Below are positions 196 through 52,499 of a stretch of 52,557 nucleotides of DNA, piece after piece. The DNA lies in IMG/VR virus record IMGVR_UViG_3300037511_000266, positions 1 through 52,557 of that record, one strand, 5' to 3'. The position numbers were made by a program, and so were the translations under genes. The notes under the pieces are model-generated. The model was not told the DNA's origin and ran no database searches. It saw only the letters and a list, made by a program, of their open reading frames with translations. Every line of letters begins with the position of its first letter. Position 1 is the first letter of the stretch. This DNA is from a virus (Duplodnaviria; Caudoviricetes).

Positions 196-445
196 GCAAC
201 TCGTCGCACTCGTGGCGGGAATCCTGATTCTCGTACTGGCCTTCGTCTTGGCGATCCCTGTCGTCGTGGGGATGGTGTTAATTTATCTCTGGATGATGTT
301 CCTCGGTGGCCTAATCGGGCTCGGAGGGCTCCTGTTAGGGTGGCTACCGGATTGGCTTGCAAAAACGCCCCAACCACGCAAGACCGCCCCAGACAAAATG
401 CAGGTGAGAAAGCTTAAGTGGTTGATTTTATTGCTCTTCGTATGA
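188..445 (+). CDS. small membrane protein
   Basis: ATG at 188 after GAGG; long hydrophobic stretch (1-2 TM) plus hydrophobic C-terminus. Confidence 0.6.
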   Translation: MIRQLVALVAGILILVLAFVLAIPVVVGMVLIYLWMMFLGGLIGLGGLLLGWLPDWLAKTPQPRKTAPDKMQVRKLKWLILLLFV

Positions 446-461
446 GGCATTTCCCTTGCTA
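445..461 (+). promoter_or_regulatory. sigma54-type -24/-12 promoter upstream of DUF932 gene
   Basis: AGGCATTTCCCTTGCTA: GG(446-447)-N10-GC(458-459); intergenic, ~60 nt before ATG 519. Confidence 0.65.
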
Positions 462-518
462 TAGAACGGAGCCAAGAGTATTTTAGTGGCTCCAACAATC
501 TAAACAAGGGGTGATTCA

Positions 519-1418
519 ATGCAGCAAGAGAGAAAAGATCCGCTACAAAGTGTGATGGCGATAGCCATGCAACGGAACCTGACACCGATGGCCGCGCTCA
601 ATACGCTCGTGCCTTCGGTGTTCACCACGACACGCCGACCAGATTGTACATCCGAGCGGTACAGCGTGGTGCCGACGTCAGAGATCGTCGAGCACATGCA
701 GCTTCGGGGCTGGCAGATTGATAAGGCTGGCGAGTCGCTCGTCCGGTCGTATCGCAAACGGCTGGCTCCCTATGTCGCGCATGTCGTGACCTTCCAGCAT
801 CCTGACTTCCAATTCGGCAAGCTGAAGAAGGGCGATGTGGTGCCGACGATTCTCATGGGCAATTCTCACGACACGTCTACGGCAGTCTGGATGCGGATGG
901 GCATGAAGCGATGCTTCTGCGACAACCAGGCCTGCGTCGAGTTAGGCGAAACCAGCGTGTTTCGCTTCCGTCACCAGGGCGGGGTCGTCAACCTCATGGA
1001 CAAGATCTATGCGTCATTGGAGAAGCTGATGGCGTCGAAAGATATTGTCGGCAAGACGCTCGATCGCTGGGCGTCGATCGACCTGAAAGAAAAGCAGCGG
1101 ATCGATTATTTTGGCCGCGTGCTGGCGCTCCGCACAGACAAGCCGAGCAGCTACGCGGAAATGGGGCTCAGCCTGTTTGATATCGGTCGTCGCCGGCCTG
1201 AGGATCAGAGCAACGATTTGTACACGGTGTATAACGTTGCGCAAGAGCACATGGTACGCGGCTATCGCACCGAGGTTTTGGTGCAGCCGAAAGGCCGCAG
1301 CGAACGGATGGAAGAGCGGTCCCTCGTCCGTCCCTTGTCGTCGACTCGGGCCTTCGTCAAGTTCAACGCCGAACTCTTCGGGCTCACGGCGAAGTACGCC
1401 GACGAAGTGAAGGCGTGA
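519..1418 (+). CDS. DUF932 (DUF945/YubP-like) domain protein
   Basis: Motifs SERYSVVPT, NSHDTST, RCFCDNQ, DLYTVYNVAQEH typical of the family. Confidence 0.85.
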   Translation: MQQERKDPLQSVMAIAMQRNLTPMAALNTLVPSVFTTTRRPDCTSERYSVVPTSEIVEHMQLRGWQIDKAGESLVRSYRKRLAPYVAHVVTFQHPDFQFGKLKKGDVVPTILMGNSHDTSTAVWMRMGMKRCFCDNQACVELGETSVFRFRHQGGVVNLMDKIYASLEKLMASKDIVGKTLDRWASIDLKEKQRIDYFGRVLALRTDKPSSYAEMGLSLFDIGRRRPEDQSNDLYTVYNVAQEHMVRGYRTEVLVQPKGRSERMEERSLVRPLSSTRAFVKFNAELFGLTAKYADEVKA

Positions 1419-1756
1419 GGGTCTGCTACGTATGCGGGAATGGGGTGAAGGCCAATGAGCTTGGCTTTTACCCCGTGACCCACGAGCGATGCCGGCCTGG
1501 ATCGAGCAAGTGGATCGAGTACTTTGAGGCATTGCCGAAATCACAACGTACTGAGGCAGGATGGTTAATCTATAATGCCGCCAAGAAAAAAGTCGCAGAG
1601 ACCAAAGAACGATTTGCGGCCCTCGCAGCCAAGTCAGTTCGTAATGTCCCACCCGATGAAGCTGCACATGGAGTCGGAGGGAAAGTACGCAAGCGTCTTC
1701 GACGAACTCCAAAAACTCGAAAGAGAGTATCCACACGTCATAAAAAATCAGGATAG
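1415..1756 (+). CDS. hypothetical protein, N-terminal CxxC...HxxC Zn-binding motif, basic tail
   Basis: GTGA overlap with upstream stop; CYVC...HERC. Confidence 0.6.
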   Translation: MRVCYVCGNGVKANELGFYPVTHERCRPGSSKWIEYFEALPKSQRTEAGWLIYNAAKKKVAETKERFAALAAKSVRNVPPDEAAHGVGGKVRKRLRRTPKTRKRVSTRHKKSG

Positions 1757-1757
1757 T

Positions 1758-2120
1758 TTGATCGAAGACGAGATTCTGGTCTTGATGACCGTCTATGCCG
1801 CACTCCTCTTTGGAGCCCAGGAAGGAGAAGAGCACATTGCGACACCCAGACAGTTGCGCGATGCGCTCTATGCATTTGGGCAACTTCGTGGCCTCCGTCA
1901 GGTGATCATCGAACATATTTGCAACTGGTTCCCGGCAACGATCTTGCTTACGGAACAAGTCTATTATCAGAACCGTTTCGCACGGCAGGCCTACGTACGA
2001 CGGGCTTCTTGCTTAGGGCCTGAGGAGTTCTTCCTGTATCCTACTGCCCGGGTGGAACACATACGCAATTTAGCTCGGGCGATCTGGAGGGCTGATGTTC
2101 TTCAAACCACCACAGAATAA
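1758..2120 (+). CDS. hypothetical protein (start uncertain)
   Basis: Distal part of ORF 1575-2120; TTG at 1758 follows stop at 1756. Confidence 0.5.
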   Translation: MIEDEILVLMTVYAALLFGAQEGEEHIATPRQLRDALYAFGQLRGLRQVIIEHICNWFPATILLTEQVYYQNRFARQAYVRRASCLGPEEFFLYPTARVEHIRNLARAIWRADVLQTTTE

Positions 2121-2412
2121 AAAGGTGCATGGGCTCGACGCGCTGAAGACCTGGGAGACGACCTACAATTGTATTTGGGATGAGCGGCTCTATCCGGTGA
2201 CCGTCAAGATCGCACATACCGTCCCGGGCTGCGAGATCCTGAGCGTGGACTTCTTGAGTGAGCCGTCGTTTGAGGAGATCCGCATTGCCGATATGGCACG
2301 GCAGAGTATTTGTCAGCAGGCCATCAATGAGTTCTGCAATTATGCAGACAACGCCCATCGTCTGATGAAAAGGACGACCACGGTGGACGACCCCTTTTTC
2401 GAGGAAGCATGA
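2095..2412 (+). CDS. hypothetical protein
   Basis: GGAGGG RBS before ATG; operon packing. Confidence 0.65.
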   Translation: MFFKPPQNKKVHGLDALKTWETTYNCIWDERLYPVTVKIAHTVPGCEILSVDFLSEPSFEEIRIADMARQSICQQAINEFCNYADNAHRLMKRTTTVDDPFFEEA

Positions 2413-2570
2413 ACAGCATCGGGCAATTGTTAGATCGATACTGCCTCGCACGCAAAGTCCGAGACACGAAGACGCAGTTAGAAGTGGCTGACAAAATCGT
2501 TGACGAGGAAGTACCGTCCTTGATACAACGGCTGGCTCAATTCATGATGGATCGCAATGAGCGGTCTTGA
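2409..2570 (+). CDS. 53-aa hypothetical protein (not in ORF track)
   Basis: GAGGA RBS, ATGA overlap; MNSIGQLLDRYCLARK...MMDRNERS fills the gap. Confidence 0.6.
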   Translation: MNSIGQLLDRYCLARKVRDTKTQLEVADKIVDEEVPSLIQRLAQFMMDRNERS

Positions 2571-3111
2571 ATTTGTCCACAAGGTTGAACTCCATGAAAC
2601 CTTTGGCTCCCGCAATAACCGATTCGCGCTCACTGCGCTCGTGGCAGAAACGCTGGCGGTCTATTATTGGTGCGAAGCGTTCTCAGTTGGTCCTCGTCCG
2701 TATCGATTCTGTGTCATCGGCCAGCGAGGTCTGTCGGACTTCGTGGCACAGGCAATCCCAAAAGTGCTTCAGCATGTTGATCGAACGACCGACGCTCTTA
2801 AAGAGACTGAAGGCTTTAAGTTTGGATCCATCATTGCGCTTCGTGAAGCCCTTCGCCTTCGAAGATCAACGGAACAAAGGCGTCCTGAATATATGGATCA
2901 ATGCAACGTCTCGACCTATCGCGCCAAGGCAAACCTGGACAAGTATTATAAGGTTGGCGTCAAGGATGCGAAGACGGAATTTGACATTGAAGGATTTCGA
3001 AGAGGTCAGAAACAAGTCTGGTCTCTTGAAAAGTTTCCTTCCCCTACCACGGTCCTAGATAATTACGCAAGGAGTAAATATGGACGATCAAGCATTGATG
3101 GAAACGGCTGA
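2557..3111 (+). CDS. hypothetical protein, resembles C-terminal domain of DUF2786-type phage proteins
   Basis: Pattern LAVYYWC...VIG...FKFG..ALREAL...GFRRG; weak by-eye similarity. Confidence 0.5.
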   Translation: MSGLEFVHKVELHETFGSRNNRFALTALVAETLAVYYWCEAFSVGPRPYRFCVIGQRGLSDFVAQAIPKVLQHVDRTTDALKETEGFKFGSIIALREALRLRRSTEQRRPEYMDQCNVSTYRAKANLDKYYKVGVKDAKTEFDIEGFRRGQKQVWSLEKFPSPTTVLDNYARSKYGRSSIDGNG

Positions 3112-3766
3112 ACGGGTGATTGATCCATGGTTTGACGTTCTCGATCTGAAGACTCGTGACGAGGGGATCGCACTGCTCAGGAAAGTGGAGGCTCGGGCGC
3201 GTGTCTCCCATCGCTCCGAGGATCGCATCACCGACAAATCCTGGGAGACGACTATTCGTCGCGTCGTATTGGAGCGTGGTGACTGGAGCGTTGCGGAGCA
3301 CGAGAAGGTGACCGTCACGGTCTTCACCGATCGAGGCATCACGCATGAGATCGTACGGCATCGCGTTGGTTCGTATACCCAAGAGTCGACGCGCTTCGTG
3401 AATTATGAAAAGAAAATGGCTCCTAGTTTCCTTTATCCACGGCCCCAGGACGAGGCGCTCGATATGGATTGGCTGGCCGCCATAGCGTCTGCAGAACTCG
3501 CTTATCGCCGGCTGCTTGCAAAGGGTTGGACGCCACAAGAGGCACGCAGTGTGTTCCCTAACGCACTTGGCTCCAAAATCGATATCACGTATAATCTCCG
3601 AAATTGGCGGTACTTCTTTTTGGCTCGGACGTCGAGAGAAGCCCATCCGCAGATGCGGCAGATTACGATTCCTCTCCTCGTAAAGTTTCAGGAATTGATC
3701 CCGATTCTGTATGAGGATATTGTGCCAGCAGAGACACAGCAGCATAATTTCAAGCAGATGCGCTGA
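3080..3766 (+). CDS. thyX: FAD-dependent thymidylate synthase ThyX
   Basis: ThyX motif RHRVGSYTQESTR; PQEARSVFP; NLRNWRYFF..R...AHPQMR; AAGGAG RBS. Confidence 0.95.
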   Translation: MDDQALMETAERVIDPWFDVLDLKTRDEGIALLRKVEARARVSHRSEDRITDKSWETTIRRVVLERGDWSVAEHEKVTVTVFTDRGITHEIVRHRVGSYTQESTRFVNYEKKMAPSFLYPRPQDEALDMDWLAAIASAELAYRRLLAKGWTPQEARSVFPNALGSKIDITYNLRNWRYFFLARTSREAHPQMRQITIPLLVKFQELIPILYEDIVPAETQQHNFKQMR

Positions 3767-3806
3767 AGTATAGTACACGTAGATCTGATTTTGATATCTG
3801 AAAATT

Positions 3807-3883
3807 TGGTGGGTGGCCAAGATGGTAAGGCTCCTGACTGTTAATCAGGTAATCCGTAGGTTCGAACCCTACCCCACCAGCCA
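3807..3883 (+). tRNA. tRNA-Asn (GTT)
   Basis: Acceptor TGGTGGG/CCCACCA, D-arm GCC/GGC, anticodon arm CCTGA-CTGTTAA-TCAGG, T-arm GTAGG-TTCGAAC-CCTAC, discriminator G, encoded CCA. Confidence 0.95.
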
Positions 3884-3899
3884 AGCCGGGAGGTCTATC

Positions 3900-4370
3900 A
3901 TGCTGGCAAAATTGAGAGATCTTCGCATTTACGCCTTCTTCTTCGTGGCACTTCTCTTGCTAGGTATAGGCTCATGTGTCGAACGTGTGGCCTTCGCACA
4001 GAATCGTAGCGTTGACTCCCTAAGGGGAAATACGCATAATGGCTTCTTTGGTCCTGAACGAGACTTTAGTCAACGATTTACCTATAGAAACAACATTGAG
4101 CCCCTTGAAAGCACAAGACAGCGACAGCAGTTCTTCCAAAGTCCTGCCCAAAGCTTCAACCGATCCAGCGGCGGGGGAGGCATCTCAGACGCAGGAGCCT
4201 TGCCCTACTTTGGAGTCGGAGACGAAGCGGGGACCGGGGCGCCCGAAGAAGCCCTTACCTTACCAGGGGCCTTTAGCGCCGAACCAGACCCGGAGCGACA
4301 AAGATGGCTTGATCCGAAAGCGCACTGGCCGTCCGAGGAACAATCAACGTGGTTTTCGTCCCACCGGTAA
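3900..4370 (+). CDS. putative exported protein (signal peptide)
   Basis: GGGAGG RBS; basic N-terminus, hydrophobic core, AFA-Q cleavage-like site; overlaps next ORF by 332 nt. Confidence 0.5.
   Translation: MLAKLRDLRIYAFFFVALLLLGIGSCVERVAFAQNRSVDSLRGNTHNGFFGPERDFSQRFTYRNNIEPLESTRQRQQFFQSPAQSFNRSSGGGGISDAGALPYFGVGDEAGTGAPEEALTLPGAFSAEPDPERQRWLDPKAHWPSEEQSTWFSSHR
3946..3962 (+). promoter_or_regulatory. sigma54-type promoter upstream of AT-hook protein gene
   Basis: TGGCACTTCTCTTGCTA is a full match to TGGCAC-N5-TTGCW, ~78 nt before ATG 4039. Confidence 0.65.
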
Positions 4371-4698
4371 GTACTACGATCTTGTTTTCGAACGCTCACC
4401 ATCCGGTCGTATAGGCCGGCGCTATAAAATTACCTTCACATCCATGTCGAGGCCAGATGCCGTCTTCGAGACGGATCTGATTTCCACGAGCCTCGGCAGC
4501 TTGCTACGCATGGTAGCGCGGGAGATCGGAAAGCTACGGCTACCGATCGCCGCTCGGCATTTCTCACTCACGCTCCAAGCCTATCCCGAATCAACCGAAA
4601 TGGTTGAAGCGAACGTTGGGATTCAGGAAGCGGAGCCCGTCGAAGGCGAACGCCCGTTGACGGTCTTGCCCTCATTCGACGAGGGTTTGGAACTCTAA
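4039..4698 (+). CDS. AT-hook-containing putative DNA-binding protein
   Basis: KRGPGRPKK and RKRTGRPR motifs; AAGGGG upstream; acidic C-terminus. Confidence 0.65.
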   Translation: MASLVLNETLVNDLPIETTLSPLKAQDSDSSSSKVLPKASTDPAAGEASQTQEPCPTLESETKRGPGRPKKPLPYQGPLAPNQTRSDKDGLIRKRTGRPRNNQRGFRPTGKYYDLVFERSPSGRIGRRYKITFTSMSRPDAVFETDLISTSLGSLLRMVAREIGKLRLPIAARHFSLTLQAYPESTEMVEANVGIQEAEPVEGERPLTVLPSFDEGLEL

Positions 4699-4716
4699 CT
4701 TACAACGCGGGGGATC

Positions 4717-5181
4717 ATGAACTTCTTTGTGGGTGCCCATACTTCGTTTCGTGGTAAGGAAAAATCATTAGTGAATGATACAAAGGTCCGCATACTCGAA
4801 AAACTCGGCCACAGTTCTGGACGAGCGAAGCGGTTCCTGAATACGCACAAGCCGCTGAAGGTCATTGAGCACGTTCCTGACAAAGACGGCAACCCTGTCG
4901 GCGTCGAGCGCCACTACCGCGCCATTGTCTTCAAGATGCCGAACGGCTACCGGCTGCAGAACGACGTCGTTCGCGCCATCATCAAAGATCTGAAGTGCGA
5001 CTGGCAGACGGCGAAGTTTCATGCCTACCGCATTGCCGCGCAAGACGTTGTTGGCAATCAGGAAGACTGGCCAGAACTCTTTCCGAAGGAAGAGTCCACG
5101 GCAGAGCCGGCAGTCGTGAGCCCGACAGCCGTCGAGACGAATCAGCCAGTGACCGAAGGAGCCGCACCGCTTCCTGTATGA
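4717..5181 (+). CDS. hypothetical protein
   Basis: GGGGGA RBS; ATGA overlap with helicase. Confidence 0.7.
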   Translation: MNFFVGAHTSFRGKEKSLVNDTKVRILEKLGHSSGRAKRFLNTHKPLKVIEHVPDKDGNPVGVERHYRAIVFKMPNGYRLQNDVVRAIIKDLKCDWQTAKFHAYRIAAQDVVGNQEDWPELFPKEESTAEPAVVSPTAVETNQPVTEGAAPLPV

Positions 5182-6647
5182 GCTACGAGTATGTGTACAA
5201 GCCCTTTGCTCACCAGGCAGAGGGCGTACAGCTATTGCGGGGTCGGAGGTTTTATGGATTCTTCGATGAACCTGGATGTGGAAAGTCAAAGGTGGTCGTC
5301 GACGGATGCAACCTTCTATTTCTGGATCGTGCTGTCTGTGCTGTGGTTGTTGTTTGCCCTAATACCGTCAAAGCCACATGGGCCAATAACTCGTGGGGGC
5401 AAATTAAGATCCACTCTCCGAGCGATTTTCCCTTCGAGGTAATTCGCTTGGACTCGGGCCGGCGATGGCCTGAGCGACAAAGCTACTGGCATTGGAAGAA
5501 TCAACGGCTCGTATGGGTCATCACAAATTATGAAGCACTACGCGCCACGAAAAACGAAACATGGCTCTCGCAGTTCTTAGCTGCGATGTCGCCGGCAGTC
5601 ATGGTGTTAGATGAAAGCACAAAGATCAAAAACCGTACCGCACTCCAAACCAAAGCCGCATTACGAATTGGGCAGCATGCGACTCGACGATATATACTCA
5701 CGGGAACTCCAATTGCTAAGAACCCGCTCGACCTCTATACCCAGTGCAACTTTCTGGATCCCCGCGTGCTCAAGTTCCCGAGCTTCGTCGCATTTCGTAA
5801 TCGTTACGCCAAGATGGGTGGATATATGGTCGGCGGAAGACCTGTCCAAGTTGTCGGCTGGCAGAATTTGGACGAACTCAAAGAGAAAATCAAAGAACAT
5901 AGCCGAATTATTGAAAAGAAAACGGCTCTTCCAGATCTTCCACCAAAACTTTTCACACGCATTGAAGTCCCTCTCTCCCCCGAACAGGAGCGAGCCTACT
6001 TACAGATGCGGGACCACGCTGTTGCGACTGTGCCTGGAACGGTCGGACAAGCCACAGCAACTATTGCGCTTACTAAGGCTCTTCGCCAAACCCAGATCAC
6101 TTCGGGCCATCTCACCATCAAAGACTCCGTTACTGGACAGGACAAAGTAGTGGTCTTTGAGCAGAACCCGAAGACCGATGTGGTGATGGAGTTACTCGAA
6201 GAAATTGAGCACATGGTGGTGTTCTGCATGTTCATCACCGAGATCCAAGAACTCAGCAGCCGGCTTAGAAAGGCCGATATCTCACACGGATTGATCTATG
6301 GCGAAACGAAAAACACAGAGCGGGAAAAGATCCAGCAAGACTATCAAGCCGGGAAGCTTCGCGTGGTGGTTTGCCAGGTTGTCACCGGAGGCATCGGTAT
6401 TACGCTTACTCAAGGTTCAACTGCGGTTTTTCTTACCAATCCGTATTCGTTGGAAGCGCGAGTCCAAGCCGAAGACCGCCTCCACCGACCAAGTGCTGAG
6501 AGACACGATAATGTTACTTACTACGATGTATGCGCCACATATGGTGACGGGAAACCCACCATCGATCATTCCGTTATCAAAGCCCAAGAACAAAAAGAAG
6601 ATCTCTCGAACTACGTCCTAGGACGGACTTTAGAGGAGGTTCTGTGA
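5178..6647 (+). CDS. SNF2-family (SF2) helicase
   Basis: DEPGCGKS, LDEST, LTGTP, GIGITL, QAEDRLHR; start reassigned to ATG 5178. Confidence 0.92.
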   Translation: MSYEYVYKPFAHQAEGVQLLRGRRFYGFFDEPGCGKSKVVVDGCNLLFLDRAVCAVVVVCPNTVKATWANNSWGQIKIHSPSDFPFEVIRLDSGRRWPERQSYWHWKNQRLVWVITNYEALRATKNETWLSQFLAAMSPAVMVLDESTKIKNRTALQTKAALRIGQHATRRYILTGTPIAKNPLDLYTQCNFLDPRVLKFPSFVAFRNRYAKMGGYMVGGRPVQVVGWQNLDELKEKIKEHSRIIEKKTALPDLPPKLFTRIEVPLSPEQERAYLQMRDHAVATVPGTVGQATATIALTKALRQTQITSGHLTIKDSVTGQDKVVVFEQNPKTDVVMELLEEIEHMVVFCMFITEIQELSSRLRKADISHGLIYGETKNTEREKIQQDYQAGKLRVVVCQVVTGGIGITLTQGSTAVFLTNPYSLEARVQAEDRLHRPSAERHDNVTYYDVCATYGDGKPTIDHSVIKAQEQKEDLSNYVLGRTLEEVL

Positions 6648-6811
6648 CTTGTTCGTTTGATCCTCGGATATATGCCTCCATGCCGATAGGGATGTTCCAC
6701 TGCCCTGAATGTGGGGAGATGGTGCTTGCCGGTCTGCCGCATACCCCACCTCTTGATGGGGCACCGATCTTGAAAGAGGAGACGCGCCATGGCTCGGAAG
6801 AAAGCAAGTAG
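6644..6811 (+). CDS. 55-aa Zn-finger-like protein (not in ORF track)
   Basis: GAGGAGG RBS, GTGA overlap; MTCSFDP...PIGMFHCPECGEMVLAGLPH. Confidence 0.65.
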   Translation: MTCSFDPRIYASMPIGMFHCPECGEMVLAGLPHTPPLDGAPILKEETRHGSEESK

Positions 6812-8033: not shown

Positions 8034-9673
8034 TGAGCGAAATCGTTCACATTGAACGGTTCGCGTCTCTCTTTGCCGGTCTTACACGAGCGAAGGGTCG
8101 GTATGTCTCTACGACCGACCCTTCGAAACTCGTGGTCGGAGATAAGGCCAAAGGTAAAGCGACGACGATCACTGAGCAAGTGACGTTCGAAGACTATCGC
8201 CGGCATGTGCTAGGTGAAATTAGTCTTGGCGTCGTGCCGGTGCGCGACGACGGCACCTGCGTCTTTGGCGCAATTGACGTTGACCAATATACCGGTCTTG
8301 ACCATGCGGCGATCGTCCGCAGGTTGGCTGAGCTAAATATCAACGCCTACGTGTGCCGCAGCAAGAGCGGTGGGGCGCATATTTATACCTTTGTGCATGA
8401 GCCTGGATGCGCGGCTCAAGCCATGATTGCCTACCTTAAAAAGCTGCGCACTGATTTAGGAATTGATTACCGCAAAGCTCGAGAAATTTTTCCGAAACAG
8501 GTGAAGCAGTCCGGTGGGATCGGCAACTGGATTAACCTTCCTTACTTTGGAGATACACCCAGACGTGCCGTCAAGATCGACGGTACTGATTACACTTTCC
8601 AAGAATTTGTCGAAAGTGCTGTCCGTCTGGATGCCGCGAAGATCTCGCAGGCCCCTACGTCCGATGAAAACTTGGTGGTGACAGAACTCCCACCCTGCCT
8701 TGAGAGGCTGATTCAGGACGGTATTCCTGCGGGACAGCGGAACGAAGCTCTCTTCAACTTTACCGTGTTCGCTGCCAAGAAACATCAGCTTGATCGTCCG
8801 AAAACAATCAAGATGTTGGACGTCATCAACATGCGCGTCTGTCAGCCACCCGTCCCAAGCCAGGAGTTGAAGACGACGCTCAATAGCGTACTGCAACATG
8901 AATATAACTATCGCTGCCAGCAATCGCCGCTTGTTGACTGCTGTGATAAAGCCGTCTGCGCCACCAGACCCTACGGTCCAAGTGCTTCGATGCGCCCGGG
9001 CAATATTCCTGAGATCGAACGCATTGAGATTCGCGGTGACTCGGAAGAGGAGACACGCTATCACGTCAAGCTTGCGAACGTTCCGACCACGGTCACCTGC
9101 GACTCCTCGTCTCTGTTGGACTATACGGTTTTTCGTAAGCGTGTCATGGATAAGGCACATACGCTCTTATCGGGTGACGTTAAGAAGAAAGACTGGGATG
9201 CGTACATTACCGCTCGATTCGCCGCTCTTGCGGAGACTGTGCGGGTGGCCCCTGAAGGCTCCAAGCTAGGCATGTTGCAAACAATTCTCGATGATTGGAT
9301 CCAGACATATTTTACGACCGATCCTGAACAATTCCGTCTAGGTCGTCCGTATGTCGAGAATGGTGCTGTGTTCGTCAAGCTCGGAGACGTTGGCCCTCGG
9401 CTCAAGAAATCAGACAACAAGCTAGGGCTTCAACAAATCGTCGTGTTTTTGGAGAATAGCGGCTGGGAAAAAGTGACGAAGACCGTTGATGGTCGTGCCT
9501 ACGACAACGTATGGACGAAGACCTCCCCGGGCACCGATCTTGCGAACGAGCAGAAAGTCGTGGTCATTGAATCAACATCTGGCGAGGTCGTTCTCGAAAC
9601 ACCGAAGGATGTGCCGGCCAGCACTTTTGAGGAGTACGACAGTTGGGATCGTTTCAAGTCAGACGCAGACTAA
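8033..9673 (+). CDS. archaeo-eukaryotic primase with PriCT-like domain
   Basis: GAIDVD (motif I), SKSGGAHIY (motif II), EIFPKQ, GNWINLPY, LPPCL...GQRNEALF. Confidence 0.85.
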   Translation: MSEIVHIERFASLFAGLTRAKGRYVSTTDPSKLVVGDKAKGKATTITEQVTFEDYRRHVLGEISLGVVPVRDDGTCVFGAIDVDQYTGLDHAAIVRRLAELNINAYVCRSKSGGAHIYTFVHEPGCAAQAMIAYLKKLRTDLGIDYRKAREIFPKQVKQSGGIGNWINLPYFGDTPRRAVKIDGTDYTFQEFVESAVRLDAAKISQAPTSDENLVVTELPPCLERLIQDGIPAGQRNEALFNFTVFAAKKHQLDRPKTIKMLDVINMRVCQPPVPSQELKTTLNSVLQHEYNYRCQQSPLVDCCDKAVCATRPYGPSASMRPGNIPEIERIEIRGDSEEETRYHVKLANVPTTVTCDSSSLLDYTVFRKRVMDKAHTLLSGDVKKKDWDAYITARFAALAETVRVAPEGSKLGMLQTILDDWIQTYFTTDPEQFRLGRPYVENGAVFVKLGDVGPRLKKSDNKLGLQQIVVFLENSGWEKVTKTVDGRAYDNVWTKTSPGTDLANEQKVVVIESTSGEVVLETPKDVPASTFEEYDSWDRFKSDAD

Positions 9674-12372: not shown

Positions 12373-12519
12373 ATGCGAGGGCTCGCCTGTTTTGGTTGGT
12401 TCATCGCGTCAATCGCGCTCGGTGTGTATAGCTCTTCGACATCACTGGCCGTCTTTTGCTGGTGGGCCGGCTATTCCTATGGCATGTATTGGTACGACCA
12501 GTCAGGACCAAAACGATGA
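12373..12519 (+). CDS. 48-aa membrane peptide (not in ORF track)
   Basis: GGAGGT RBS; MRGLACFGWFIASIALGVY...; ATGA coupling. Confidence 0.55.
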   Translation: MRGLACFGWFIASIALGVYSSSTSLAVFCWWAGYSYGMYWYDQSGPKR

Positions 12520-12827
12520 ACACCATTGTCTTAGCCAACGAAAGCGAAACCATGAGAGTCATTGTCTTAGCCGGCGACTACAAACAGTTTAGACGTTGGT
12601 GTGAAGATACCGGGTTCCCTCCATATCCGTTTAAGTACGAGGACACGACAGGTCGACGTTGGCAGGCCGTCTACTGTGACCCGCAAGGCTACAACCTGAA
12701 GGGAGTCAAGTACGACGCCTATATTAAAACCGGTAGGTGGTACGAGAACACGACCGAACTCATTCAGATCTTCCATATTGAAAAGTGCTTGCGACAGAAA
12801 AGGGCTAATGGACTATCAGCTTCCTAA
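12516..12827 (+). CDS. hypothetical protein
   Basis: ATGA overlap; VIVLAGDYKQFRRW. Confidence 0.6.
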   Translation: MNTIVLANESETMRVIVLAGDYKQFRRWCEDTGFPPYPFKYEDTTGRRWQAVYCDPQGYNLKGVKYDAYIKTGRWYENTTELIQIFHIEKCLRQKRANGLSAS

Positions 12828-14661
12828 ACCGTTTCCGCTGGAACGGTACAAGAAAGTCTATCTCGACATCGAGACGACGGGCTTCGAAATGTACCACGGG
12901 GATACCGTCATTGGTGTCTCCCTGGGAGTGGAGATCGACGAGCGGAACTGCCGCATGGCCTACTTCCCGCTCGCCCACCGCGACGGACCCAACCTTGAGA
13001 AAGCCCTCTTTTATCGCTGGCTGAATCAAGAGCTACGCGGCAAGGAGATTGTTGGCCACAACATCGGCGGCTTCGACTTGCCCTTCCTGCGGCGTGAAGG
13101 CTGCAACCTGATTGAGCACAACAGTTTCCGCGACACGATGCACGCAGCCATCCTCGATGATCCTGCGGCAATTGGCGGCTATTCGCTCGATGCCGTGGCC
13201 AAACGCTATCTCGGTGATCAGCAGAAGATTAAAGGTCTGGATAAGGAAAATCTTGCAGCCATTCATCCTGCGATCGTGGGGAAATATGCGGAGCAAGATA
13301 CACGCCTATGCTGGATGCTTGAGCCCGTTCTCTACGGCTTTTTGAAAAGAAAAGAACTTCTAAACATATTTGACATCGAGAGCCGCACGATTCGTCCCGT
13401 CGTGGAGATGATGGCGAACGGTCTTCTGTTTGACTGGGAGAAAGCAAGGAAGTGGATTGATCTCGCACGTAAAGACCTCCAACAGGTTGAGAGTGAATTG
13501 GCCGGCGTGAATTATAACTCCGGTCAGCAACTTCAAAAGAAGTGCGACGAGCTAGGTGTCTCGTATCCGTGGAACTGGAAGTGTCCCAGCGTGACGTGCG
13601 AAGAAAGCTTCCCGAGCTACCAGCAAGAAGGTCAGGTCTTTATGTGCTGGAAGTGTAAGGTTGAAATGGTGAAAGCCTCGCCGCACTTCGGTAAGAAGTT
13701 TATGAAGGTTATGAGTCACCCGTTCGTGAAACAGGTGATGAAGGCGCGACAGCTTCACAAGCTCCTCAACACCTTCCTTATTCCATGGGTAGAACACATC
13801 AACCCGCAAGACCCGATCCTTCGATACACGCTTAACCAGTTGCGTGACCGAGACGAAAACGGCGGTACGAAGGGTGCTGTATCGGGCCGCTTCTCGTGCG
13901 CTGGGTTGGGGGCGGGGGCTCAGCCGCAGCAAATCTGGAGTGTTGAGAATCAAGCCGCTGAGATCGGTGAAGATTACCTGCTCCGCTCCCTGATAATCCC
14001 CGCTAGCGGAAAACAGTTCGCATCGCTCGATGCGTCCCAAATTGAGTTTCGGTTGTTCGCTCATTATTCAGACAATGCGGATTTGATTCGTGAGTACAAC
14101 GAGAATCCCAAGGTGGACTTCCATGCGCTCGTTGCCGAAAAAGTCTTGAAGGGACTGCTGCCGAGAAAGAAAGCCAAGAACGTCAACTTCGGCACCCTGT
14201 ACAACATGGGCGTTCCGAAATTCGCCCGGGAGCTTAACATCTCCCTCAAGGAAGCGCAAGAGATGTTTGATACGTACAATCAATACTTTCCAGCCGCCAA
14301 AGAGTTACGCGACAAGGAAAAACGTAAAGCCGCCTGCGGGTTACCCACCATTACGTTGAAGGGCCGGCGCTTTGATTGGACCGACCCCGAAATGAAAAAG
14401 AAATGCTACGTCGCCTTGAATCGCCTGATCCAAGGCTCGGCAGCGGACATTATGAAGTTGGCGCTCGTGAAGGCTTATGACGGTGGTTACTTCGATACGA
14501 TGCGCCTGACCGTTCACGACGAAGTTGATGGAGACATTACCACTGTCGAGCAGATTAACGATTTGAAGACTGACCTAGAAAAACCGGAGTTCCTCGACAA
14601 CGCGCTCAAGGTGCCGTTGGTCTGGGAGCCGACCGTGGGTCCGTCATGGAGTGGGAAATGA
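12808..14661 (+). CDS. polA: family A DNA polymerase with 3'-5' exonuclease domain
   Basis: ExoI DIETTG, ExoII GHNIGGFD, ExoIII YAEQD; motif A DASQIEFR, motif B RKKAKNVNFGTLY, motif C VHDE. Confidence 0.95.
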   Translation: MDYQLPKPFPLERYKKVYLDIETTGFEMYHGDTVIGVSLGVEIDERNCRMAYFPLAHRDGPNLEKALFYRWLNQELRGKEIVGHNIGGFDLPFLRREGCNLIEHNSFRDTMHAAILDDPAAIGGYSLDAVAKRYLGDQQKIKGLDKENLAAIHPAIVGKYAEQDTRLCWMLEPVLYGFLKRKELLNIFDIESRTIRPVVEMMANGLLFDWEKARKWIDLARKDLQQVESELAGVNYNSGQQLQKKCDELGVSYPWNWKCPSVTCEESFPSYQQEGQVFMCWKCKVEMVKASPHFGKKFMKVMSHPFVKQVMKARQLHKLLNTFLIPWVEHINPQDPILRYTLNQLRDRDENGGTKGAVSGRFSCAGLGAGAQPQQIWSVENQAAEIGEDYLLRSLIIPASGKQFASLDASQIEFRLFAHYSDNADLIREYNENPKVDFHALVAEKVLKGLLPRKKAKNVNFGTLYNMGVPKFARELNISLKEAQEMFDTYNQYFPAAKELRDKEKRKAACGLPTITLKGRRFDWTDPEMKKKCYVALNRLIQGSAADIMKLALVKAYDGGYFDTMRLTVHDEVDGDITTVEQINDLKTDLEKPEFLDNALKVPLVWEPTVGPSWSGK

Positions 14662-14933
14662 CATTGACGTTTTGGCTGGTTGAGTTAAGGCCGGCATTCG
14701 AGGGACATCCGCCGTTTCCGCCGACATATTACGCCGGCTATCGAGACGGCATCCACGAAGTGATGACGACCGATCCGAACCGCGCAGCACGTTTCATGTA
14801 CCGCTATGACGCGCATGTCGTGGCGCAGAAACTTCTGCCGACCAAAAGCTGCATCTGGATGGCCACGGAGCACATCTTTCTGGATGAAGACACCTTCACT
14901 TACTCCAGTCCTGAAGATATGCCCCAGGCCTAG
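14658..14933 (+). CDS. hypothetical protein
   Basis: ATGA overlap with polA stop. Confidence 0.6.
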   Translation: MTLTFWLVELRPAFEGHPPFPPTYYAGYRDGIHEVMTTDPNRAARFMYRYDAHVVAQKLLPTKSCIWMATEHIFLDEDTFTYSSPEDMPQA

Positions 14934-14949
14934 GGCACCGATATTGCTA
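14933..14949 (+). promoter_or_regulatory. sigma54-type promoter upstream of DUF550/nrdJ
   Basis: GGGCACCGATATTGCTA: GG(14934-5)-N10-GC(14946-7), immediately after stop 14933. Confidence 0.6.
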
Positions 14950-15017
14950 TGAAGACGGTACGAATTAAGACGATTGCCGGTCCTATGGACTGCATCATAA
15001 CCGGGAGCAAAGAACCA

Positions 15018-15431
15018 ATGCATGAGACACAAGAGACGATAGGGAAGTGGGCCATTGAGAAATTCGGACGACCCAGGCCGTTGGCCGTGTTACGTCGCTC
15101 CGTGGACGAGCTACTCGAAGCGATCGAGTTGACCGTCGTCGAGAATGAAGCCACGCGCACGATGTTCAAAGCGATGCGCCTGGGCTTGAAGCATCTGGAC
15201 AATTATGAGTTGGGACCAGACGTCGTACATCGACTGACCCCTGAAATTATGATGGAACTCGCTGACTCGGAGATCGTGAACAAGCACGCCGCAGAAAGCA
15301 TGCATTGTGATCTCCAGAGTTTCATCGATAAGAAGATGGAGATCAATCGAGCGCGGCTATGGAAAATGAACGGCGACGGAACAGGCCAGCACACCGAAGA
15401 GAAACACGACGAGCGGGAGACGAATCCATAA
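15018..15431 (+). CDS. DUF550 / MazG-like dNTP pyrophosphohydrolase
   Basis: WAIEKFG, E..E, ELADSEI, KMEINRARLW..NGDG..QH; start 15018 favoured (GGGAG upstream) over 14949. Confidence 0.7.
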   Translation: MHETQETIGKWAIEKFGRPRPLAVLRRSVDELLEAIELTVVENEATRTMFKAMRLGLKHLDNYELGPDVVHRLTPEIMMELADSEIVNKHAAESMHCDLQSFIDKKMEINRARLWKMNGDGTGQHTEEKHDERETNP

Positions 15432-36451: not shown

Positions 36452-37624
36452 CTACTGCGTGTCGTACACCAGGATCCGACCGTACGGATAAGTCGGAGTA
36501 TTGTCCGTATCGTCCAGCACCACCAACTCAAACGGCACCTTCATGAACTCTTGGTCGTTCAATGAGAGGTTACCCTTGCTGTTGATCTGGCACTTGGGAA
36601 TTTCGATATCGAACGACAACCCACGACCGCTCTGCGGATGCACTTCCAACCGAGCAGAGCCTTCGACCGATCCGACCATCACGAAGTTGGTGATCTGCGC
36701 AGAGACCGTAGGATACGTGAAGCTCACCATGATCTCTTCGCCATCAACCAACGCACCACCCGAAACGCCACGCACACGCGCATCTGAATCCGCCGTGCCG
36801 AGGTCAATCGCGTAGTCCGTGTTCTCCACAAGCGCCCCACGACCGATGCTGTTCAGCGTAGCCGGGGTTGCAGGAGAAGCTGCCGTCTGCTCGATCTTGA
36901 CCCAATAAGCACTGACTCCATTGACCGTGGTCTTAGCCCAGTCAGTCGGAGCCGTCCAGGTCACGCTCGCATCAGCAGAAAGATCTGCCGTGCCTGAAGT
37001 GGACAGGGTGCTCCAAGTGGATCCGTTCCAGTACTTCCAAGTCACTGACGTATAGCCGCTGGAAGCGGTCTGCACATCAACGACCACTTTCTTGAAGATG
37101 CTGTTCTTCTTGCCGATATAAAGAATATCGTTGTCATCAGCAAGCGCAGCGAACGGCGTGCCAGCCGAGGTATCGGCTTCAACGCTGTTGTTGACATACG
37201 TGCTGCCGTTATACAGGTAGCAGTAGTCCAAGAACTGCCGAGCCGAGTACGAAGTGATCGGGCCTTTCTTGGTGAGCGACACGAAGCTGTAGCTCGTCCC
37301 AAGCTGGGCTTTGTGATCAACTACCGCAGTCGTGCCAGCGGACTGGTTCACAACATTGTCGCCCTTGAAGAAGAGCTTGAAGTTGTTGACTACCGGCTCA
37401 TCGAGCGCGAACTCAATCGAGATCGACTCCTGCAGCGCGATAACCTTGTCCTTCCGACGCAACCCGGGGCGATTCGTATAATGCTCCAGGTAGTTCGTGT
37501 CTCGTCCGATCGACACATCGACCATGTTGCCAAGGTCGACTTCGCCCGTCCCGTCGTTGAAAAACAACTTAATACCACCGGGAACGGTATAGTTGTCGGT
37601 ATCATGAATTTGCGGCATGGACAA
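36452..37624 (-). CDS. major tail (tube) protein with inserted domain
   Basis: DLGN...HY...EFALDE tube N-part; IEIPKC..GNLSL..EF C-part; AGGAGG RBS. Confidence 0.8.
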   Translation of the reverse strand: MSMPQIHDTDNYTVPGGIKLFFNDGTGEVDLGNMVDVSIGRDTNYLEHYTNRPGLRRKDKVIALQESISIEFALDEPVVNNFKLFFKGDNVVNQSAGTTAVVDHKAQLGTSYSFVSLTKKGPITSYSARQFLDYCYLYNGSTYVNNSVEADTSAGTPFAALADDNDILYIGKKNSIFKKVVVDVQTASSGYTSVTWKYWNGSTWSTLSTSGTADLSADASVTWTAPTDWAKTTVNGVSAYWVKIEQTAASPATPATLNSIGRGALVENTDYAIDLGTADSDARVRGVSGGALVDGEEIMVSFTYPTVSAQITNFVMVGSVEGSARLEVHPQSGRGLSFDIEIPKCQINSKGNLSLNDQEFMKVPFELVVLDDTDNTPTYPYGRILVYDTQ

Positions 37625-48327: not shown

Positions 48328-49681
48328 AGCCCTTCGACGCTGGCGCTTTCGGCGCGTTCGAGGGTTTCGGTTTACCTGCGCCTTGCGGCTGACCAGGAGG
48401 AACAGGGGGAGCCGGGAGCGGCAACAATTTTCCGTTGTCGTCGATCGGAAACACGTTGTTGGTCACAAACCGCGCATTGCCGGCATCGGTCTTTGGAATG
48501 TTCAGTTCAAAACGATCGATCATTTCGTTGAGGGACGCGCCCATCTGCCACAGCTTAAAGGCCATGTCGATCTTCTCGTTGACCTCGGCTTGCAGCGCAT
48601 CCACTTTCGAGACGTCAAACTTCAAGTAGATGTTGCCGGTAGAAGTCAGTGAGAAGAGTTGCGCCCACATGATGTGCTCAAGTAAGCGCATCTTCGGCAC
48701 GAGCGTCTTGACCCAGAACTCTCGAGACTGGACTTTCGCGACAGCGAAGTTGACACCTTCCCACACACCCAGTTCGAGCTTCGGCACTTTGTAGCACGCG
48801 AGGATCTCATCGCGGTTCCAGTGCTTCTGCTGCAAGAACTCCATATCTTTCTGCGAGGGCACGAGTTGCTTGTACTTAGCCCCACCTTCCAGAATGGCCA
48901 TCATGTGCGCTTTGTTGACGCCCCCATGATGATCTTGGAACTGCTGCTTCATGCGATTGAACGTTTCGTCAGAGAGTTCTTCGTCGATCTCGATCACACC
49001 ACCAGGGAGCGCCGAGTTCATGAAGAAGGCCTTGTTGTACTGCGAGGCCATGTTGTCTTGATCGATACCCAACTGCGCGGCTTGGATCGGAGACAGACCG
49101 CGAATCGGATCATAGGGGTTGTACATCTTGAAGAAGACCACTTCCCACGTATTAAACGGAATCGTCTTCCCGTCAGAGGTATCGTACTTCCAGCCGACAA
49201 TTTTGCTGGCTGTGTTGATGATCGGTTCAAACATCGGGCCGGCATACGGAATGATGCCTGCGGGAATGGCCGTAGGCTCTTTGCGATCGAGTACCCACAT
49301 GCATTCGCCCCAGAGCAGCAAATGAATCAACGTTGCTTCAATCAACTGCTGCAAGCCCATCTGATCGTTTGGCTTCTGAAAGAGCCGGTCCCACTTGGCG
49401 GAATCTTGGGGACTCGCGACTTGGTCTCGGCTGTTCATCCACATGATCGGCGTGCCCGAGATGTTCATGGCGATCGATTCAATCGCCCCGCGTACCCACG
49501 GATTCGATGCATAGGGATCGGTGACTTTGTTGCCGCCGACAACTTGCAGGAAGGTCTTCGAGCGAGTGGTCCCGAGGAACTGCCACTCTGAGTCAGAGAA
49601 TCGAGGAATTAGCGGAATCGACTTGCGGGTCGTTGGTGCTAAAAGGAAGGCCGCAAGACTTTGCCCAAGACGCTTAAGCAT
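48305..49681 (-). CDS. portal protein, HK97 family
   Basis: PNDQM, LLWGEC, GLSPI, F.NSALPGG, ILEGG, DMEFL, YKVP. Confidence 0.95.
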   Translation of the reverse strand: MLKRLGQSLAAFLLAPTTRKSIPLIPRFSDSEWQFLGTTRSKTFLQVVGGNKVTDPYASNPWVRGAIESIAMNISGTPIMWMNSRDQVASPQDSAKWDRLFQKPNDQMGLQQLIEATLIHLLLWGECMWVLDRKEPTAIPAGIIPYAGPMFEPIINTASKIVGWKYDTSDGKTIPFNTWEVVFFKMYNPYDPIRGLSPIQAAQLGIDQDNMASQYNKAFFMNSALPGGVIEIDEELSDETFNRMKQQFQDHHGGVNKAHMMAILEGGAKYKQLVPSQKDMEFLQQKHWNRDEILACYKVPKLELGVWEGVNFAVAKVQSREFWVKTLVPKMRLLEHIMWAQLFSLTSTGNIYLKFDVSKVDALQAEVNEKIDMAFKLWQMGASLNEMIDRFELNIPKTDAGNARFVTNNVFPIDDNGKLLPLPAPPVPPGQPQGAGKPKPSNAPKAPASKGYEDDTEI

Positions 49682-51077: not shown

Positions 51078-51465
51078 GCATGCGTTCGCTGCCCATGGCT
51101 GCCGCGTCCCACTGCATCAACCGGAGACGGGCCTTCGCTCGTTGCTGGCCACGCGCCCATGCGCCTTGAATAGCCGTCGAGCCGTTGAAGTGTTCTTTCG
51201 TCAGACCACAGATGGCGATGATTTCTTCGGGAGCGCACATCAAAGAACCCAAACGCTCAATGATCACGAGATCGCGTTCCGAGGGTGCGACCGGATCGTC
51301 CAAGACGGCCACATCCATAGCGTAGACACGCTCCGAGAGGGGTAGCGAAGCCTCCGGTGGTAGGAGGACCGCAATCCGATCAAGCGGCCTCAAGAACGTG
51401 TTGGATCTGCCGCGTCCCTGAGCGCCCGGGCTAGCCGGTTCAACGCTGACTGGTTCGTTAGCCAT
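50848..51465 (-). CDS. terS: terminase small subunit
   Basis: HTH-like EEII.ICG; LRLMQW..A..G..RMLVHLGKQYLDQ; precedes and overlaps TerL. Confidence 0.75.
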   Translation of the reverse strand: MANEPVSVEPASPGAQGRGRSNTFLRPLDRIAVLLPPEASLPLSERVYAMDVAVLDDPVAPSERDLVIIERLGSLMCAPEEIIAICGLTKEHFNGSTAIQGAWARGQQRAKARLRLMQWDAAAMGSERMLVHLGKQYLDQTEKTENNTPNEEEKREKRTFRDKLADAIDRAAAERTARLSDGRGEGGSTQDVAPLGTGQPTPPEA

Positions 51466-52180
51466 TTTCCCGGTTCACGTAGTCAGCGGTTTGAAACAGG
51501 AACTCATCAATCTGCAGGGTGAGGGTCGACGGCGCGCCGGCATCAAAGATGCCCATGTAGAGCCCGGGCACATACATGGCATTCAGGTTGGAAAGCTTGC
51601 CGTGCGTGTGGTAGTTGCCGTTGATGCTGGCGACAACGATGTCGTTGTTGATCGTGATCTCGATCATGTACCACGTACTATCAGCAATGGCGACACCCAT
51701 GTCCGTGTCGTTGTTTTCAATCTGCAGTTGGAAGTTGGTCTTCCCGAAGCCGGCATAGACGTCCGTCTGGACCGTGCCGTTGCCGTCCGCGTACTGGAGG
51801 CCAAACTGGATACCGGTGTTCGTCAGATCGGTCGTAATGTCCGCTGGCGTCTTGAAGGCCAGCGCGACACGTCGCACGTCTTTCGCGGCACAGACCGCCG
51901 CATGGTCAAAACTACTGTCCGAGCCCGGGTACGGATTTAACTGCATCCACGCATCGCCGTAGCCAGCGACTCCATCGAACGAGGCCTTCAGACCGAGCAC
52001 GCCCGGATGCCCCGGCACCGCTGCTTGATACAGCACCAACGGATTGACCGGCGCGTTCCCCGTGGTCGTCACGACGCGAAAGCCGGCAGTGCCGAGCAAT
52101 GCCGTCGTAATCCCACCCGTCATGAAGTCGTCATAGATCGTCGCCATCGGTTTGTTGGGAATGCGCGTCAAATTAAGCAT
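51458..52180 (-). CDS. ConA/lectin-like beta-sandwich protein
   Basis: YDDFM..HPGVL..DSTWY.IEI..LQIDEF; AAGGA RBS at ATG 52180. Confidence 0.65.
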   Translation of the reverse strand: MLNLTRIPNKPMATIYDDFMTGGITTALLGTAGFRVVTTTGNAPVNPLVLYQAAVPGHPGVLGLKASFDGVAGYGDAWMQLNPYPGSDSSFDHAAVCAAKDVRRVALAFKTPADITTDLTNTGIQFGLQYADGNGTVQTDVYAGFGKTNFQLQIENNDTDMGVAIADSTWYMIEITINNDIVVASINGNYHTHGKLSNLNAMYVPGLYMGIFDAGAPSTLTLQIDEFLFQTADYVNRENG

Positions 52181-52304
52181 TGTGTATTTCCTTCTCCATC
52201 CGTTTGAGCCGATCGAGGAGTTTCGGCTTCCACATCGGAGCCCCACCCATCTTGTGTGGCTTGCACATTTTGCAAGATCGGCGTTTGGCTCGGTAGACCT
52301 TCAT
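52173..52304 (-). CDS. 43-aa basic CxxC-KPHK protein (not in ORF track)
   Basis: MKVYRAKRRSCKMCKPHKMGG...; starts 10 nt after -10 box; stop overlaps next start. Confidence 0.6.
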   Translation of the reverse strand: MKVYRAKRRSCKMCKPHKMGGAPMWKPKLLDRLKRMEKEIHNA

Positions 52305-52313
52305 ACGTAGTTC

Positions 52314-52341
52314 ATTCTAAGTAATTCCTGGGGATTGTCAA
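52314..52341 (-). promoter_or_regulatory. sigma70-type promoter heading the structural arm
   Basis: TTGACA-N16-TAGAAT on - strand. Confidence 0.7.
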
Positions 52342-52465
52342 CTCATTCCTCGTGTTTCGTGGTGCGTGGCTCGTTTTGGGGGTCTTTCCCGGCATTTTTC
52401 CTGTGTTTATGTGAGCAGGTGGGCGCTATGGCCGGCCTACCCTCCGAAAAATTTTCCGAGCCGCA

Positions 52466-52482
52466 CGGCATGGTCGTTGCTA
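52466..52482 (+). promoter_or_regulatory. sigma54-type promoter, rightward
   Basis: CGGCATGGTCGTTGCTA: GG(52467-8)-N10-GC(52479-80). Confidence 0.6.
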
Positions 52483-52499
52483 TAGCAAGATCCGTGCCT
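52483..52499 (-). promoter_or_regulatory. sigma54-type promoter, leftward
   Basis: - strand AGGCACGGATCTTGCTA; shares palindrome TTGCTATAGCAA with the rightward site. Confidence 0.65.

Follow-up and report, generated by a model that had tools for sequence, protein, structure and literature searches.

Conserved Sigma-54-Type Promoter Boxes in a Lineage of Soil Phages Without a Visible Activator Gene

The DNA analysed here, called the window, is the whole of IMG/VR phage contig IMGVR_UViG_3300037511_000266, a linear sequence of 52,557 bp with a GC content of 53% and a CheckV completeness of 78%. It carries five exact copies of a short box, GGCAY-N5-TTGCTA, which resembles the -24/-12 promoters read by the sigma-54 (RpoN) form of bacterial RNA polymerase. 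The boxes are real and conserved in related phages, and at the level of sequence they behave like sigma-54 promoters. The sigma-54 of the host is probably the factor that reads them. Sigma-54 promoters stay silent until an ATP-driven activator answers a signal, such as nitrogen status or damage to the membrane or to RNA. We favour the hypothesis that the boxes are genuine promoters bound by the host sigma-54 holoenzyme and fired by a host activator, a complete reading that we judge about equally likely to be right or wrong.

The Boxes in the Window and in Related Phages

The initial annotation placed exact GGCAY-N5-TTGCTA sites at 446, 3947, 14934 and 52467 on the plus strand and at 52483-52498 on the minus strand, and all five are present. 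Dinucleotide shuffles give an expectation of 0.02 sites and none of 100 shuffles reaches five, so that the proposed enrichment over shuffled sequence is confirmed for the exact motif. The looser pattern GGCAY-N5-TTGCW also occurs five times, against 0.44 expected per genome under a first-order Markov model (maximum 3 in 200 simulations). The GG and GC doublets of the boxes are exactly 10 bp apart, as in sigma-54 promoters. A scan with the textbook consensus TGGCAC-N5-TTGCW is less clear-cut: four sites with at most one mismatch are seen against 1.47 expected, a number reached by 5 of 100 shuffles, and the excess disappears when two mismatches are allowed (25 sites against 25.07). One box of the window, at 3947, is a perfect textbook match and two more have one mismatch. 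Since the motif was chosen post hoc and the textbook enrichment is weak, support for the boxes must come from relatives.

A search with the large terminase TerL leads to 15 related viral loci (70-83% identity for 12) that have in common the gene order TerS, TerL, portal, protease, capsid. Two full-length relatives, G011 (67,785 bp, 100% complete, with overlapping ends) and G012 (64,094 bp, 95% complete), are collinear with the window arm from the DUF932 gene onward, with protein identities of about 25% to 75%. The pattern GGCAY-N5-TTGCW, defined on the window, was then applied to these diverged relatives with the reversed pattern as control. G011 has 7 boxes, all forward, and G012 has 11, of which 10 are forward and 1 reverse. 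The reversed pattern is found 0 and 1 times, respectively, and Markov simulations expect 0.4-0.5 boxes per genome (maximum 3 in 200). The motif is thus kept in related contigs, as the initial annotation had proposed to check. No box is present in the more distant TerL relatives G014 (100% complete) and G015 or in the fragment G013, indicating that the trait belongs to this lineage.

All 12 single boxes in the plus-strand (left) arms of the window, G011 and G012 point with the genes, which extends to three genomes the co-orientation first noticed for the window. Eleven of the 12 are followed within 140 nt by the Shine-Dalgarno start of an open reading frame (ORF) of at least 50 aa, compared to 48% of background positions taken at 7-nt steps across these arms (P = 0.002). 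Several boxes of the relatives come after hairpins that, judged by eye, look like terminators. Outside the two blocks no position is conserved among the boxes of the lineage, except a T at -1 in 13 of 23, suggesting a bipartite element like a sigma-54 promoter rather than the long promoter of a phage polymerase. The consensus WATCAANNNNTTR of integration host factor (IHF) has nine matches in the 154 kb formed by the three genomes and the related locus L025. Four of the nine sit 19-31 bp upstream of the start of a box, at the DUF932 promoter of all three genomes and at G012 position 850; the window has two matches in total, one of them at the 446 box. The assignment of the boxes as sigma-54-type -24/-12 elements therefore stands, as far as nucleotide data alone can carry it, on consensus match, conservation and direction. 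Their description as a phage-wide set was an overstatement, the boxes being confined to the non-structural arm and to the region upstream of terS.

The likeness to -24/-12 elements would be coincidental if the motif were read by another factor, for instance a DNA-binding protein of the phage or a sigma-like factor that has diverged. The spacer form (C/G)GAT(C/A) recurs at 1934, 6760, 9530, 14934 and 52498, and G012 has -24-like half-motifs that lack a -12 block, both of which would suit a different reader. However, the sigma-54 consensus is matched at every defining position and in spacing, no further position is conserved outside the two blocks, and in unrelated phages of 31-55% GC the match reaches flanks that the search patterns did not require. 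Moreover, none of the window proteins scanned matched a sigma, RNA polymerase or helix-turn-helix family. We regard a reader of this kind as very unlikely.

Near-consensus boxes are also found in the window at 6760-6775, 9530-9545, 17300-17315 and 37148-37163 (minus strand), two of which share the 13-mer GGCACCGATCTTG.

Left-Arm Boxes and Their Genes

The features discussed in this and the following section are listed in Table 1. The 446 box begins directly after a stop codon (443-445) and is followed, 57 nt further on, by ATG 519 with the Shine-Dalgarno sequence AAGGGG. The DUF932 orthologues of G011 and G012 have 43-46% identity, and in each of the three genomes a box precedes the DUF932 start by about 60-74 nt (window 446, G011 8854, G012 10186). 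These three promoters have only GGCAT and TTGC in common, with spacers TTCCC, CCCGT and CTGGT. A search of viral contigs with a single DUF932 protein found no relative, and a profile of the three proteins matched only G011, G012 and two distant loci. The stem-loop GGAGCCA...TGGCTCC at 468-491 begins at about the predicted start of the 446 promoter and could be a stabilising 5' hairpin.

A box also follows the ThyX gene in all three genomes (window 3947, G011 12407, G012 13711), here with spacers TTCTC, TGGTC and CGTTA. The window box falls on the codons for V-A-L-L-L-L in the signal peptide of a lipoprotein-like ORF. The box of G011 likewise lies within the signal peptide of the homologous ORF (12378-12728), and that of G012 is found 11 nt before the ATG of its homologue. 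At this junction the sequence varies at synonymous positions but at no position of the box, a pattern pointing to selection that acts on the DNA motif itself. The AT-hook ORF downstream has a C-terminal part conserved in G011 and no Pfam or PHROG match. In each of the three genomes two long ORFs overlap in different frames over about 275-350 nt (window 3900-4698, L039 12378-13116 and L040 13738-14443); that both the lipoprotein-like and AT-hook frames are open suggests overprinted genes or a programmed frameshift. A long ORF listed from 3813 begins inside the tRNA-Asn gene, so that this start is spurious.

The gene behind the 14934 box had been assigned to DUF550; it has no Pfam match, so that this name is not confirmed, and it aligns to phrog_9147. 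The alignment begins at residue 24, and that of the G012 orthologue at residue 22, indicating that the real start is probably ATG 15018. With this start, the box stands at the beginning of an 84-bp gap. The gene that follows has the domains of a class II ribonucleotide reductase (RNR), including the B12-type insertion domain. Another box is situated near the 3' end of the RNR gene: G012 has it in exact form, G011 with a single mismatch and the window as a degenerate copy at 17300.

The initial annotation described most boxes as intergenic or at gene boundaries. This holds for 446 and 14934, which follow stop codons, and not for 3947, which is inside the lipoprotein-like ORF after tRNA-Asn. It also reported a weaker site at 1933; the sequence is there, inside ORF 1575-2120, and no box scoring at least 14 occupies that place in G011 or G012.

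Table 1. Predicted promoter elements and associated features of the window.
Feature	Coordinates	Strand	Basis and remarks
IHF-consensus site WATCAANNNNTTR	415..427	-	Motif match; 19 bp upstream of the 446 box
Sigma-54-type box GGCATTTCCCTTGCTA heading the DUF932 block	446..461	+	Exact match; predicted start near 471
DUF932 gene, first after the 446 box	519..1418	+	Pfam DUF932, E 9.5e-23
tRNA-Asn (GTT), between ThyX and the 3947 box	3807..3883	+	Rfam tRNA, 61.6 bits; ARAGORN
Lipoprotein-like ORF	3900..4370	+	Translation MLAKLRDLRIYAFFFVALLLLGIGSC; Shine-Dalgarno GGAGG; no Pfam match
Sigma-54-type box TGGCACTTCTCTTGCTA, only perfect TGGCAC-N5-TTGCW of the window	3947..3962	+	Predicted start near 3972, upstream of the AT-hook ORF
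AT-hook ORF (GRP repeats), overlapping the lipoprotein-like ORF in another frame	4039..4698	+	Translation; Shine-Dalgarno
Sigma-54-type box GGCACCGATATTGCTA	14934..14949	+	Abuts the stop of ORF 14646-14933; predicted start near 14959
phrog_9147 gene, revised start	15018..15431	+	PHROG match from residue 24; followed by the class II RNR gene, 15359-17401
Candidate sigma-70-type promoter TTGACA-16-TAGAAT of the packaging/structural operon	52314..52341	-	11/12 matches
66-nt conserved DNA block, between the boxes and the terS promoter	52395..52460	-	Alignment
Outward-facing box (away from terS), left half of the mirror pair	52467..52482	+	Toward early genes missing from the contig
Box pointing toward terS, right half of the mirror pair	52483..52498	-	Exact match

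Region Upstream of terS

The two boxes at the right end of the window, first reported as separate sites, are both present and are the halves of a single 32-bp imperfect palindrome (52467-52498). The contig ends 59 bp beyond. This mirror pair lies about 125 bp from a strong predicted sigma-70-type promoter that faces the structural operon. Boxes are found upstream of terS in four of the six members of the lineage with enough upstream sequence (window, L025, G011 and G012); there are none in L029 or in L031, whose sequence extends only about 240 bp upstream from the conserved block. The boxes point away from terS in L025 (3/3), in G011 (3/3, locus L026) and in G012 (5/6, locus L030). A terS-facing box is found also in G012 (63742, minus strand), and in neither G011 nor L025. 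The outward half of the window pair thus has the prevailing orientation. The terS-proximal boxes of the relatives stand as abutting tandem units with offsets of 16-17 bp.

In G011 the outward boxes lead into about 15 CTACGTAG iterons, beyond which come small early genes. Arrays of about 5-15 units built on the palindrome CTACGTAG or on TACGTA are found directly downstream of outward-facing boxes, at G011 65450-65750 (L026 about 2040-2340), with similar arrays at L025 2700-2880, L029 300-440 and L031 1-230. Possible roles are those of an origin, operator array or enhancer; the window contig stops short of this region.

A separate conserved promoter, predicted to be of the sigma-70 type, stands in front of the structural operon; in the relatives, TTGAC(A/G) elements with -10-like hexamers are recognised by eye upstream of terS. 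The 66-nt block next to it, GGAAAATTT... GCGC..C..CT..AAT...A.AG.AAAAA, is aligned in six sequences (window, L025, L026, L029, L030 and L031) and has no consensus RNA structure. It may be a packaging (cos/pac) site or a protein-binding site. An ORF of 262 aa that belongs to no family (51458-52246, minus strand) lies between terS and its promoter in the window only, and tblastn finds no homologue of it in L025, L026 or L030, loci in which the upstream region is present.

Boxes in Other Phages and in Cellular Genomes

Besides the window, 23 viral contigs (31-55% GC, the longest 231 kb) have the mirror arrangement, searched as GGCAY-N5-TTGCTATAGCAA-N5-RTGCC, and so does a single contig (bacterial) in 596 Gb of cellular genomes. 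Among positions left free by the pattern in the 46 half-sites of the 23 viral palindromes, T stands at -1 in 44 and at -2 in 34, and position 6 is a purine in 45. The sigma-54 consensus is YTGGCACG-N4-TTGCW. These flank positions, which the search did not require, fit it, indicating that the reader of the motif is probably a host factor.

Spacers in the 23 mirror pairs are complementary at 19 of 115 positions, arguing that the pair is not kept as a hairpin. In the window pair three of five positions are complementary (GGTCG and GGATC) and the palindrome folds at -19.9 kcal/mol (z -3.2). A role as terminator or RNA hairpin was considered and rejected, no T-run following the stem and the spacers not pairing across the 23 other palindromes.

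The phages with mirror boxes resemble the window in having a pair of opposed 16-bp boxes that abut around TTGCTATAGCAA where gene cassettes meet, and no activator. They differ in that their boxes are clustered, whereas those of the window lineage are mostly single, dispersed and gene-proximal, and in that T at -1 is usual, whereas the window pair lacks it. In four near-complete genomes with mirror-type boxes the boxes are grouped in one short region (11 of 12 within 3 kb in G002), and dense arrays reach 19 boxes in 14 kb (L008) and 8 within 800 bp (L014). Tandem boxes are found at 31 viral loci and at 47 loci of cellular genomes; about 17 chance matches are expected in the genome collection by a hand estimate with uniform base frequencies. 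Abutting tandem boxes occur several times per genome in metagenome-assembled genomes (MAGs) of Myxococcota (L183, L203 and L205, one MAG) and Planctomycetota (L209, L210 and L213).

All ORFs of at least 50 aa from the window, G011 and G012 were compared by tblastn, which would miss remote similarity, to the genomes G002, G005 and G008 and the loci L001-L023. The shared proteins are SNF2, PolA, RNR, ThyX and portal. In addition, the prohead-protease ORF of the window (Peptidase_S78) and its G011 counterpart give one weak match of 42-43 residues to L008, and one ORF of G011/G012 matches L010 and L021. These box-bearing phages thus share little with the window lineage beyond common replication and portal genes, so that the motif is most likely read by a conserved factor of the host.

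The dense arrays of L008 and L014 and the near restriction of the mirror pair to viruses (23 viral loci against 1 in the genomes) invite another interpretation, namely that the boxes bind host sigma-54 or its holoenzyme mainly as a sponge, replicating phage DNA taking up the scarce sigma-54 and thereby silencing host sigma-54 stress regulons, or as stable closed complexes that form roadblocks or insulators between transcription units. Boxes abutting at offsets of 16-17 bp would offer dense docking, yet leave no room for two polymerases at once. The absence of an activator from all 13 phage records searched is in keeping with such a role. According to PMC4591121, sigma-54 holoenzyme is inactive when it binds DNA, and the majority of its sites in E. 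coli fall within genes. On the other hand, titration has no need of orientation, yet all 12 left-arm boxes point with the genes, and 11 of them stand just before a start codon. The IHF-consensus site fits activation by looping, and the dispersed single boxes are too few for a strong sponge before DNA replication. We consider it unlikely that titration or blockage is the main job of the boxes.

The Missing Activator

The initial annotation stated that no activator is visible, and the searches made here uphold this. The profile Sigma54_activat (PF00158) has no match in 13 records, the window and 12 others, six of them 95-100% complete, in a search where the control genomes were all positive. Sigma54_activ_2 (PF14532) and the DNA-binding and core-binding domains of RpoN are each absent from five records, among them the window, G011 and G012. 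A GAFTGA-like peptide is found neither in the six frames of the window nor in G012. The peptide GAFTG in a 62-aa ORF of G011 was examined as a possible activator loop and discarded, as it is not conserved. The comparison of all ORFs by tblastn and the scan of the G011 ORFs yielded no candidate for a novel activator; Pfam assigned only DUF6915 and GP88 among the 10 G011 ORFs submitted and left 8 with no match.

With canonical activators absent and most early ORFs outside any family (8 of the 10 G011 ORFs and many in the window), the promoters could be opened by an unrecognised phage activator, not an AAA+ protein of the GAFTGA type, made early or injected. In favour of this is Htm, an AAA+ protein of a T4-like phage with a structure like that of enhancer-binding proteins and no GAFTGA, described in a 2026 preprint (10.64898/2026.10.06.757011). 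There, action of Htm on sigma-54 polymerase is put forward only as the hypothesis of its authors. Nevertheless, apart from the common replication and portal genes, the weak protease match and the uncharacterised ORF of G011/G012 matching L010 and L021, tblastn, which would miss remote similarity, found no protein common to the lineage and to unrelated box-bearing phages. Furthermore, the GenBank record of Pseudomonas phage YuA labels its -24/-12 promoters as highly active, an activity that, if measured in a phage-free assay, would speak against the need for a phage protein. An activator of phage origin seems rather improbable to us.

Proposed Mode of Action

In the scenario that we favour, that of host polymerase and host activator, the sigma-54 holoenzyme would first form a closed complex at each box, to be opened by a host AAA+ enhancer-binding protein, either bound upstream and brought in by IHF bending or acting from solution; passages of PMC3844500 describe that the AAA+ domain of an activator alone fires sigma-54 promoters with no enhancer. 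Transcription would start about 12 nt after the GC doublet (Table 1), and the blocks served would be those of DUF932, of replication (AT-hook ORF, SNF2, primase, UvrD, PolA) and of ribonucleotide reductase. For the mirror pair we propose a two-way docking site at the border of the structural operon and the early genes.

Several observations weigh against this scenario. On the window alone the textbook consensus is only marginally enriched, and T at -1 is absent from four of the five boxes. The 3947 box is within a coding region and the 14934 box has no counterpart in G011 or G012. No enhancer-like repeat shared between the regions before the boxes was found by looking for shared 9-mers, the palindrome CTTGCA-N5-TGCAAG or short inverted repeats. 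Abutting tandem and mirror boxes are needless for a simple promoter and fit titration or a roadblock as well. No RNA run is listed as containing window positions 1-6000. Lastly, the taxonomy of the TerL relatives is too mixed to name the host, on which the presence of rpoN, of IHF and of the activator depends.

A bolder proposal is that many unrelated uncultured phages, this lineage included, carry no activator and open the host sigma-54 polymerase by an undescribed mechanism that dispenses with a classical AAA+ enhancer-binding protein, and at the same time drain sigma-54 from host stress regulons. The means could be a small phage factor, or the abutting and mirror boxes themselves with their AT-rich TATA core after the -12 GC. 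We hold this to be improbable.

Genome Layout and Relatives

The region 1-6000 of the window is contained in seven DNA sequencing runs, all from soil metagenomes, and megablast of positions 1-25000 against named phages gives no match. The plus-strand arm (1-23,905) encodes DUF932 and ThyX proteins, an SNF2 helicase, an AEP primase with a PriCT domain, Pam3 gp33-like and gp34-like proteins, a PD-(D/E)XK nuclease, a UvrD helicase, DNA polymerase A, class II RNR, a dCMP deaminase and an AAA_28 P-loop protein. The minus-strand arm, from about 52,246 down to 24,263, is an operon for packaging and structure that encodes TerL, portal, S78 protease, HK97-type capsid and M15 peptidase. An Rfam search of the whole window finds nothing except the tRNA. 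Two parts present in G011 and G012 are missing from the window, namely about 9-10 kb of early genes left of DUF932 and the sequence beyond the palindrome on the right.

The record of G011 has tandem GATGCTAGAG-type units at 67500-67785 and 1-145, with about 145 bp repeated at both ends. This repetition implies that the record, though listed as linear, is circular or a terminally redundant assembly.

A search of cellular genomes with the single TerL protein found nothing. A TerL profile retrieved 448 relatives from genomes, the best cellular ones at 46-54% identity, mostly in MAGs of Alphaproteobacteria and also in Dehalococcoidia and others.

Relation to Known Systems and Significance

Enhancer-dependent sigma-54 promoters with an IHF site are well known in bacteria, for example nifH, glnHp2 and Pu. 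The phage boxes resemble bacterial promoters of this type in their GG-N10-GC arrangement with TGGCAC-N5-TTGCW-like blocks 40-90 nt before the gene start and, at four boxes, in an IHF-consensus about 45-57 nt upstream of the predicted start. Unlike them, they belong to a phage replicon devoid of an activator gene or a recognisable activator-binding repeat, and some of them abut.

Promoters of the -24/-12 type in a phage are not wholly new, YuA (Yuavirus, Pseudomonas) being the precedent. According to passages of PMC10914365, YuA depends on sigma-70 and sigma-54 and has a sigma-54-like promoter with a mapped start. Its GenBank record, NC_010116.1, marks three promoters as 'high activity (2000 MU), -24/-12 consensus'. 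Like the window phage, YuA is a siphovirus that lacks an RNA polymerase of its own (PMC10914365, same passages). Its record annotates no sigma-54 activator, a statement on annotation only, no family search having been made on YuA. Its DNA polymerase A, gp21, is a distant relative of that of the window at 26.5% identity; the window protein is 28-29% identical to PolA of siphoviruses of Pseudanabaena and Dinoroseobacter, and at these values kinship to YuA and to those phages is remote. In contrast to the window lineage, the three YuA sites are in the structural region, at 38.4, 40.9 and 47.2 kb, and score as weak matches, the best in the first fragment being AGGCACAACACTGGCG. The boxes of the window lineage are strong, head non-structural blocks and are conserved in relatives, and they include a mirror pair.

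Conserved intragenic sigma-54 sites can be real promoters, as the cited sections of PMC4591121 indicate. The 3947 box and a partly conserved box near the RNR 3' end are likewise inside coding sequence and kept in relatives, as are sites of E. coli and Salmonella treated in the cited portions of PMC4591121 and PMC3844500; those sites differ in being chromosomal with known host activators, whereas the present ones lie in a phage genome. Literature searches found no report of conserved sets of sigma-54 promoters or of mirror-paired boxes in phages.

If the favoured reading is true, the replication and nucleotide-metabolism genes of these phages are tied to the physiological state of the host by a replicon with no activator of its own, which would be a new control point for phage-host dynamics in soil, and phage transcription could continue were sigma-70 shut off. 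The presence of rpoN could become a predictor of host range. The mirror and tandem arrangements, common in viral contigs and nearly absent from cellular genomes, point to a use of sigma-54 docking sites not described in the literature searched. The boxes are short, portable parts, directly testable in surrogate hosts.

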